Position numbers and translations under genes: made by a program. The notes beneath the pieces were generated by a model, which worked only from the letters and a program-made list of their open reading frames with translations, was not told where the DNA came from and did no database searches. A DNA stretch of 64,000 nt from Shigella phage sb1: the sequence record PQ666539, one strand, 5' to 3'. This document shows, piece after piece, positions 27,334 to 28,182 of the stretch (position 1 is its first letter; the number at the start of each line of letters is the position of its first letter).

Positions 27334-28182
27334 TTAATCAAATGCTATTGGATGAATAGCATTAAACTTATGAAACGCTTCTGATTTTTCTTTGCGCGAA
27401 ACACACATGCGAAGAAACTTTAATGGCTCATCTTCTTCACCCAACGATTTTCTCTTTTCAATATTCGATGTTTTCCAACGAGCTTGCTCTGGAAATTCTA
27501 TATTGATTTGCTCAAGAGCTCTATTATGTTTTGAATTACTACGAATTGAACTGCACCCGCCAGGAGCTTGTGCTTTTCCAGATACAACCAGATATTTGAA
27601 CAGGGCCAAATGCGGATAACCTTGATTAATTAAATTGATAAATGCATACATATCTTCGCATAAATCAATTTTTCCATACCAAATTTGTTCTGTTGTAAGT
27701 TTCCCGAGGTCATACCATGTATTCGTGAATCCATATGAATTTTCACGATAATTACCCCAAGATGAAGTAATTTTAAAAATTGGTAAACGAGCATGACCAT
27801 GATAATACCCGCAATACATGGCATCTTCAACGTATTGAATCAATTCATAGAACTGTTCACGAGTTAACTGATTAATTTTATCTACGCAGCGACGATCATC
27901 TTTCTTTCGCATTGAACTCATACGAATAGTAGTATCATCATCAATCATCCAAATTCGTTGACCTGCATACATTTCAGTAATTGCTTTGCGAGTGCCAGCA
28001 ATTCCATTAACATCATCAGGAATAGTTATAATTTTGGCTCTAGGCCCGTAAGCGTCATAATAAGCTTTTTCTTCATGTTCACGTACTACAATATGCGGTT
28101 CATAATCAGATGGAAACATATCAAGGGCAGAAACTGCCCCTACGCGTTGATAGCTTGGAATTACGAATTGAATCATTTCCAC
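27334..28182 (-). CDS. GT-A fold glycosyltransferase, possibly a T2/T6-type beta-glucosyl-HMC alpha-glucosyltransferase rather than T4 beta-gt
   Basis: 282-aa ORF with N-terminal FVIPSYQR and DDD (IWMIDDDTTI) motifs; occupies the uvsX-42 slot. Confidence 0.5.
   Translation of the reverse strand: MEMIQFVIPSYQRVGAVSALDMFPSDYEPHIVVREHEEKAYYDAYGPRAKIITIPDDVNGIAGTRKAITEMYAGQRIWMIDDDTTIRMSSMRKKDDRRCVDKINQLTREQFYELIQYVEDAMYCGYYHGHARLPIFKITSSWGNYRENSYGFTNTWYDLGKLTTEQIWYGKIDLCEDMYAFINLINQGYPHLALFKYLVVSGKAQAPGGCSSIRSNSKHNRALEQINIEFPEQARWKTSNIEKRKSLGEEDEPLKFLRMCVSRKEKSEAFHKFNAIHPIAFD

Follow-up and report, generated by a model that had tools for sequence, protein, structure and literature searches.

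In T-even phages the route to glucosylated DNA is established: gp42 leads to hmC, the alpha-glucosyltransferase a-gt provides an alpha-glucose, and ba-gt adds a second glucose (PMC6024577; PMC11078745). The DNAs of both T2 and T6 contain beta-1,6-glucosyl-alpha-glucosyl-hmC, which is made by homologous ba-gt enzymes (PMC6024577; UniProt entries Q06717 and Q06718, as cited there). The levels differ between the two phages, since T2 DNA contains 5% gentiobiosyl-hmC and T6 DNA 72% (PMC6024577). When ba-gt is deleted from T6, only alpha-glucosyl-hmC is found in the DNA, and the phage shows greater sensitivity to the Brig1 glycosylase (PMC11078745).

According to a 2025 preprint, the vast majority of phages with glycosyltransferases (GTs) have one primary and one secondary GT, and a-gt and b-gt occur together in only 6 of 753 phages, T4 included (bioRxiv 10.64898/2025.12.06.692756). 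The combination of a-gt and ba-gt is present in 12 of the 14 sequenced T4-like “RB” phages (Thomas et al., PMC6024577). In the 2025 preprint, the T6 enzyme was modeled with AlphaFold3, assigned to the GT-A fold with GT2 as its sister group, and described as having no relation to a-gt and b-gt, both of which are GT-B enzymes (bioRxiv 10.64898/2025.12.06.692756). In T4, the slot between uvsX and gene 42 is filled by segA and a b-gt of 351 aa, the length given for T4 Bgt in the initial annotation of the DNA studied here. The T2/T6 enzyme ba-gt, which also goes by the names beta-glucosyl-HMC-alpha-glucosyltransferase and glucosyl-DNA beta-glucosyltransferase, has the number EC 2.4.1.28.

Here we analyze the gene in the corresponding slot of Shigella phage sb1 (record PQ666539). 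The whole stretch of 64,000 nucleotides that was analyzed is called the window.

Results

Start codon and flanks of the gene

The ORF list and its translation give an ORF of 282 codons on the minus strand (27334..28182), which begins with GTG and whose product starts MEMIQFVIPSYQR. In all annotated relatives, the gene starts at an ATG two codons inside this GTG, for a CDS of 843 nt and a protein of 280 aa. The initial annotation had described a 282-aa ORF with the motifs FVIPSYQR and DDD. The ORF is real and both motifs are present, the DDD in the context WMIDDDTTI, but the length has to be corrected: the true extent of the gene is 27334..28176, which makes a protein of 280 aa rather than 282. 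Residue numbers in Table 1 and below count from the ATG.

The ATG (28176-28174) overlaps the TGA stop codon of gene 42 (28175-28173) in an ATGA, and a Shine-Dalgarno-like element, GGTGAG, lies 5 nt upstream of it. Overlap and element together suggest that translation of the gene for the secondary glucosyltransferase is probably coupled to that of gene 42, the gene for hmC synthesis. On the other side, 77 nt (27257-27333) separate the gene from uvsX. The order 42–ba-gt–uvsX is common to the window, T2, T6, pSs-1, sb2, sb3 and ECp13.

By eye, the 77-nt gap contains a TATAAT after a TGCCTAA that is like the MotA box of T4 middle promoters, and could be read as a possible uvsX promoter. A scan of positions 27000-29300 for promoters found 14, no excess over shuffled sequences (10.7±4.2), and a scan of the same positions for terminators found 2, again no excess (1.2±1.2). 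The terminator scan flagged a GC-rich hairpin with a 9-bp stem at 28122-28142 on the minus strand (TAGGGGCAG-TTT-CTGCCCTTG), in the 5'-terminal part of the ba-gt CDS. Its T-tail is weak, and the count of such hits is not above the shuffled expectation.

Table 1. Features of the window and ba-gt genes of reference strains.
Feature	Position	Strand	Basis or remark
uvsX recombinase, downstream flank of the slot	26075..27256	-	ORF; so annotated in relatives, T4, T2 and T6
ba-gt CDS, 280 aa	27334..28176	-	ORF, relatives' 843-nt CDS, PHROG 842, Pfam TAGT, identity to T2/T6
GGCSSIR loop (Gly206-Arg212)	27541..27561	-	Gly206 and Gly207 44/49, Arg212 46/49 in alignment A2
Glu174-Asp175, candidate catalytic base	27652..27657	-	Asp175 44/49 in A2, invariant in close subfamily
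DDD (Asp79-81), DXD motif of GT-A enzymes	27934..27942	-	Directly after strand E74-78 in the model
Thr62-Arg63	27988..27993	-	Arg63 49/49, Thr62 44/49 in A2
FVIPSYQR (residues 4-11)	28144..28167	-	After strand beta-1, ends in invariant Arg11; A2, model strand E3-7
Gene 42, dCMP hydroxymethylase, makes hmC precursor	28173..28913	-	Translation; relatives annotate deoxycytidylate 5-hydroxymethyltransferase
a-gt, DNA alpha-glucosyltransferase (primary GT)	39314..40516	-	Pfam AGT PF11440, E=1.9e-229; agt in relatives
T2 ba-gt	NC_054931, locus L006 3001-3843		His11
T6 ba-gt	AP018814, locus L007 3001-3840		DDD shortened to DD
T6 ba-gt	MH550421, locus L011 102-944		DDD kept; stop at codon 10; annotated from Met20

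The gene is a T2/T6-type ba-gt

In a profile search, PHROG 842 (“beta-glucosyl-HMC-alpha-glucosyltransferase”) matches the protein over its full length with E=3.8e-87. The Pfam family TAGT (PF20691) matches residues 5-209 with its profile positions 2-205 of 205, at 42.1 bits (gathering threshold 27.5 bits) and E=1.2e-10. NCBIfam has no model that matches either ba-gt or a-gt. Over 280 aa, the protein is 95.4% identical to that of T2 and 95.0% identical to that of T6, and its gene is flanked by gene 42 and uvsX, as in these phages, which bears out the earlier suggestion that the slot holds the T2/T6 enzyme. The agt gene that had been proposed at 39314-40516 is likewise present (Table 1).

At the DNA level, the gene matches 489 phage records; in 474, the match covers 80% or more of the gene, and most of the 489 matches carry the label beta-glucosyl-HMC-alpha-glucosyltransferase or glucosyl transferase. 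With the protein as tblastn query, 689 records are matched. Hits in Tequatrovirus of Escherichia, Shigella and Yersinia make up the band above 90% identity, T4-like phages of Klebsiella, Enterobacter and Salmonella the band at 60-65%, and the homolog of Serratia phage PS2 is 47.5% identical. Judged by these DNA-level and protein-level matches, the ORF is far beyond what chance would produce.

Taken together, we put the probability that the gene is a T2/T6-type secondary DNA glucosyltransferase, ba-gt, which acts on alpha-glucosyl-hmC DNA, at roughly 0.93. As such, it is already known at this locus: ba-gt between gene 42 and uvsX is a routine annotation and the textbook arrangement in most T4-like coliphages.

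With T4 as precedent, where segA and b-gt lie between uvsX and gene 42, one could have expected the slot to contain a beta-glucosyltransferase of the T4 type (GT-B, GT63) or a homing endonuclease such as SegA. This reading has effectively no probability left. As the initial annotation had held, the protein is unlike T4 Bgt (best BLASTP E=0.5); moreover, its model is a single GT-A domain, and the gap to uvsX measures only 77 nt. Nor was either protein found elsewhere in the window, since tblastn searches of the whole 64 kb with T4 Bgt and SegA gave best E values of 1.3 and 2.8, respectively.

A further alternative is a GT-A DNA glycosyltransferase with another specificity. Such an enzyme might take its sugar from another donor, be a primary GT for hmC itself, or have beta-glucosyl-hmC as its acceptor. 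Homologs at 47-64% identity occur together with b-gt and not a-gt (PMC6024577), and some homologs are found without a recognizable primary GT (bioRxiv 10.64898/2025.12.06.692756), so that specificity does vary within the family. The window, however, combines 95% identity to the characterized T2 and T6 enzymes with the same slot and the same a-gt, so that a switch of specificity is very unlikely and we give this explanation hardly any weight.

Far more distant members of TAGT, about 23-24% identical, are encoded on two metagenomic phage contigs (loci L012, 6001-6813, and L013, 6001-6810). They adjoin a 5-hmdU DNA kinase gene (HMUDK_hel), a thymidylate-synthase-like gene, a dUTPase/DCD (dCTP deaminase) gene and a SPASM-domain gene of the radical-SAM type. 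These loci look like clusters for thymidine/pyrimidine hypermodification rather than hmC-glucose systems, and they fit the idea that TAGT proteins are DNA-base glycosyltransferases that work in pyrimidine-hypermodification clusters.

Conserved residues and fold

Alignment A2 contains 49 homologs with identities to the query of 13-96%. Invariant residues are Arg11, Arg63 and Asp79-81 (49/49). Ile6 (47/49), Pro7 (46/49), Tyr39 and Arg212 are each conserved in at least 90% of the sequences, Asp175, Gly186, Gly206 and Gly207 in 44/49 each, and Tyr9 in 42/49. Both the invariant residues and the two groups from Ile6 to Arg212 and from Asp175 to Gly207 are intact in the ba-gt of the window.

A search of PDB sequences with the protein detects no relative of a solved structure, the sole match (E=0.68) being noise. 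The AF2 model of the exact window sequence has a pLDDT of 91.8 and a pTM of 0.90. It predicts a single GT-A domain, a Rossmann-like alpha/beta/alpha arrangement that resembles solved GT-A structures, and does not have the two domains of a GT-B fold. Together with the presence of a DXD motif, the model agrees with the original proposal of a GT-A-type enzyme.

Several motifs can be given tentative roles. FVIPSYQR would correspond to the P-x-Y-N loop of GT2 enzymes and bind the nucleotide, and the DDD, from its place as the DXD motif, would bind a divalent metal and the diphosphate of UDP-glucose. Asp175 follows the DXD motif by ~95 residues and lies at the start of helix H174-184 in the AF2 model, which makes Glu174-Asp175 a candidate for the catalytic base of an inverting transfer. 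Around residues 201-210 the pLDDT is lower, 69 for that block, which suggests a flexible loop at GGCSSIR.

Private substitutions in the window

The residue-level record of the window has to be read against an unusual pattern of substitutions. Between 23000 and 33000, a comparison with four close relatives finds 111 private substitutions in the window. Their ratio of transitions to transversions is 60:51, while that of the relatives lies between about 2:1 and 7.5:1. The substitutions of the window fall on codon positions 1/2/3 in the numbers 22/10/50, whereas nearly all private changes of the relatives are at position 3. The excess consists of C>A and G>T changes. Counted over positions 1-50010, the window has 154 private C>A and 101 private G>T changes, as opposed to 6-28 C>A and 6-18 G>T in each of three relatives (50 kb). 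These G:C→T:A changes affect 1.55% of all G:C sites, are spread evenly along the window and depend only weakly on trinucleotide context.

The consequences for coding sequences are severe. Of 50 conserved ORFs with a length of 100 aa or more, 15 are broken, including those for topoisomerase, rIIA, dda, 41, 42, 43, 46 and nrdD. In-frame stops are found at ~25372 in gene 41, at 28407-28409 (TAA) in gene 42, and at ~31078 and ~30025 in gene 43. We read the private changes as sequence error and not as loss of the hmC pathway, because a phage with such a genome would not be viable. The excess of G:C→T:A changes is almost certainly a sequence error, most likely one of the oxidative-damage type. Two other explanations were considered. 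That the phage has truly lost the hmC pathway through the stop in gene 42 was rejected, since such changes disrupt 15 of the 50 conserved ORFs, the essential genes 41 and 43 among them. A context-specific base-calling error at modified cytosines is not supported, because the trinucleotide rates are fairly flat (0.6-2.9%) and the distribution along the window is even.

Both sb2 (PQ666540) and sb3 (PQ666541), which are among the closest public relatives, also have broken conserved ORFs, five in sb2 and three in sb3. In sb2, the annotation splits the DNA polymerase into two CDSs, and there is a mild excess of C>A changes (28). This hints at a sequencing or assembly problem that is shared by this group of records.

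In ba-gt, there are seven private replacements (S45P, D121Y, G166W, L180I, R226I, V254F and V279F). None of them is at a family-invariant residue, and 15 close orthologs show almost no variation at the seven positions. From their place in the overall pattern, the replacements are probably due to the same error process as the window-wide excess. Folding or activity could suffer if they were real. In a-gt, the private replacements, of the same G>T type as those in ba-gt, are A39S, R108H, D115Y, T170A, Q213K and D216Y. Taken literally, the stop in gene 42 together with D115Y and D216Y of a-gt would mean a dead pathway; we attribute them to sequence error as well. Residue-level conclusions from the two glucosyltransferases of the window therefore need caution.

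Lesions in reference strains

Lesions in ba-gt are on record for T2 and T6 (Table 1). The T2 protein has His11 in place of the arginine that is invariant in all 49 sequences of A2, and this exact protein is present in at least four GenBank entries. Among 16 orthologs, the lesions of T2 and T6 are confined to those strains.

This precedent matters for another interpretation of the window, namely that its gene is an ortholog of ba-gt but a hypomorphic or dead allele with real private substitutions, and that the DNA of the phage carries mostly mono-alpha-glucosyl-hmC, as in T2 or in T6 without ba-gt. Natural or laboratory lesions of ba-gt do occur (His11 in T2, DDD to DD and the stop at codon 10 in T6), and the seven replacements are unique to the window among 16 close orthologs. 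On the other hand, the G:C→T:A excess is even over the window and also breaks the essential genes 41, 42 and 43, for which sequence error is the best reading, none of the seven changes hits a family-invariant residue, Trp166 is present in five other family members, and the AF2 model of the exact sequence is confident. We consider a dead or hypomorphic allele improbable, and prefer the reading as an intact T2/T6-type ba-gt with errors in its sequence.

The lesions may also bear on the difference between T2 and T6. It is conceivable, though we regard the idea as speculative, that the consensus allele, which the window shares with most T4-like coliphages, is fully active and makes the DNA T6-like, with mostly gentiobiosyl-hmC, and that the 5% in T2 as against 72% in T6 would then be due to a strain-specific hypomorphic R11H allele rather than to regulation.

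Discussion

Our data suggest a model for the window that follows the T-even pathway. Gene 42 would make hydroxymethyl-dCMP, so that hmC enters the DNA at replication. The a-gt enzyme, a GT-B protein encoded at 39314-40516, would add an alpha-glucose to hmC in DNA. The ba-gt enzyme, with its single GT-A domain of 280 aa, would then move glucose from UDP-glucose onto this alpha-glucose in beta-1,6 linkage, which would yield gentiobiosyl-hmC. In the active site, the invariant DDD may hold the diphosphate of UDP together with a divalent metal, and the IPSYxR loop together with Arg63 may hold the nucleotide. The acceptor glucose may lose the proton of its 6-OH to a carboxylate, for which Asp175 is the candidate, and the transfer would then be a single displacement. 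It has to be inverting because the donor is UDP-alpha-glucose and the linkage in the product is beta. The second sugar would alter which host defenses see the DNA, for example by hiding alpha-glucosyl-hmC from Brig1.

For phage sb1, the genes alone predict gentiobiosyl-hmC. The initial annotation had drawn the same prediction from agt and its partner in the slot; it stands for the type of modification and not for its amount, which the gene pair does not predict. The enzymes of T2 and T6 are 98.2% identical, and the DNAs of the two phages nevertheless differ between 5% and 72%, so that the presence of a-gt and ba-gt speaks for gentiobiosyl-hmC but not for its extent.

The second glucose decides which host defenses can attack the phage. 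In the literature, gentiobiosyl-hmC shields T6 DNA from Brig1, and GmrSD-type enzymes still target gentiobiosyl-hmC. Whether a phage has a-gt and ba-gt or a-gt and b-gt helps to predict host range and to choose restriction enzymes or CRISPR tools. The ba-gt locus itself adds nothing new in this respect, because a-gt together with ba-gt is already a routine annotation in this group of phages.

The closest counterparts of the gene are ba-gt of T2 and T6, which likewise have 280 aa, lie in the slot between 42 and uvsX, and are partnered by a-gt; the ATGA overlap with gene 42 is also found in relatives. The ba-gt of the window differs from these enzymes by its seven private replacements, probably sequence errors. 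It keeps Arg11, which the T2 reference does not, and it keeps both the DDD and an open codon 10, of which each of the two T6 records has lost one.

With the Pfam family TAGT, the TET-associated glycosyltransferases, the protein shares a match to the whole profile as well as Arg11, Arg63 and the DDD. Unlike the namesakes of the family, it has no association with a TET/JBP dioxygenase. In the window, hydroxymethylation takes place at the nucleotide level, by a thymidylate-synthase-like dCMP hydroxymethylase, and the base already carries the sugar that serves as acceptor. GT2-type inverting GT-A enzymes (SpsA, 1h7l; TarP, 6h1j; AvpGT, 9jma; cellulose synthase, 4p00) are only 7-15% identical to ba-gt. 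The acceptor of ba-gt is modified duplex DNA and not a lipid, polymer or protein, and ba-gt has no membrane domain.

The b-gt of T4 (GT-B, GT63, 351 aa) takes the equivalent slot beside gene 42. Both T4 Bgt and ba-gt use UDP-glucose, and both form a beta linkage. However, the two enzymes have no sequence similarity and different folds, and T4 Bgt is a primary GT on hmC, whereas ba-gt acts on alpha-glucosyl-hmC. A further difference from T4 is that the homing endonuclease gene segA is missing from the interval between uvsX and ba-gt in the window. By the two surveys of glucosyltransferase combinations cited at the outset, the window has the usual arrangement, from which T4 departs.
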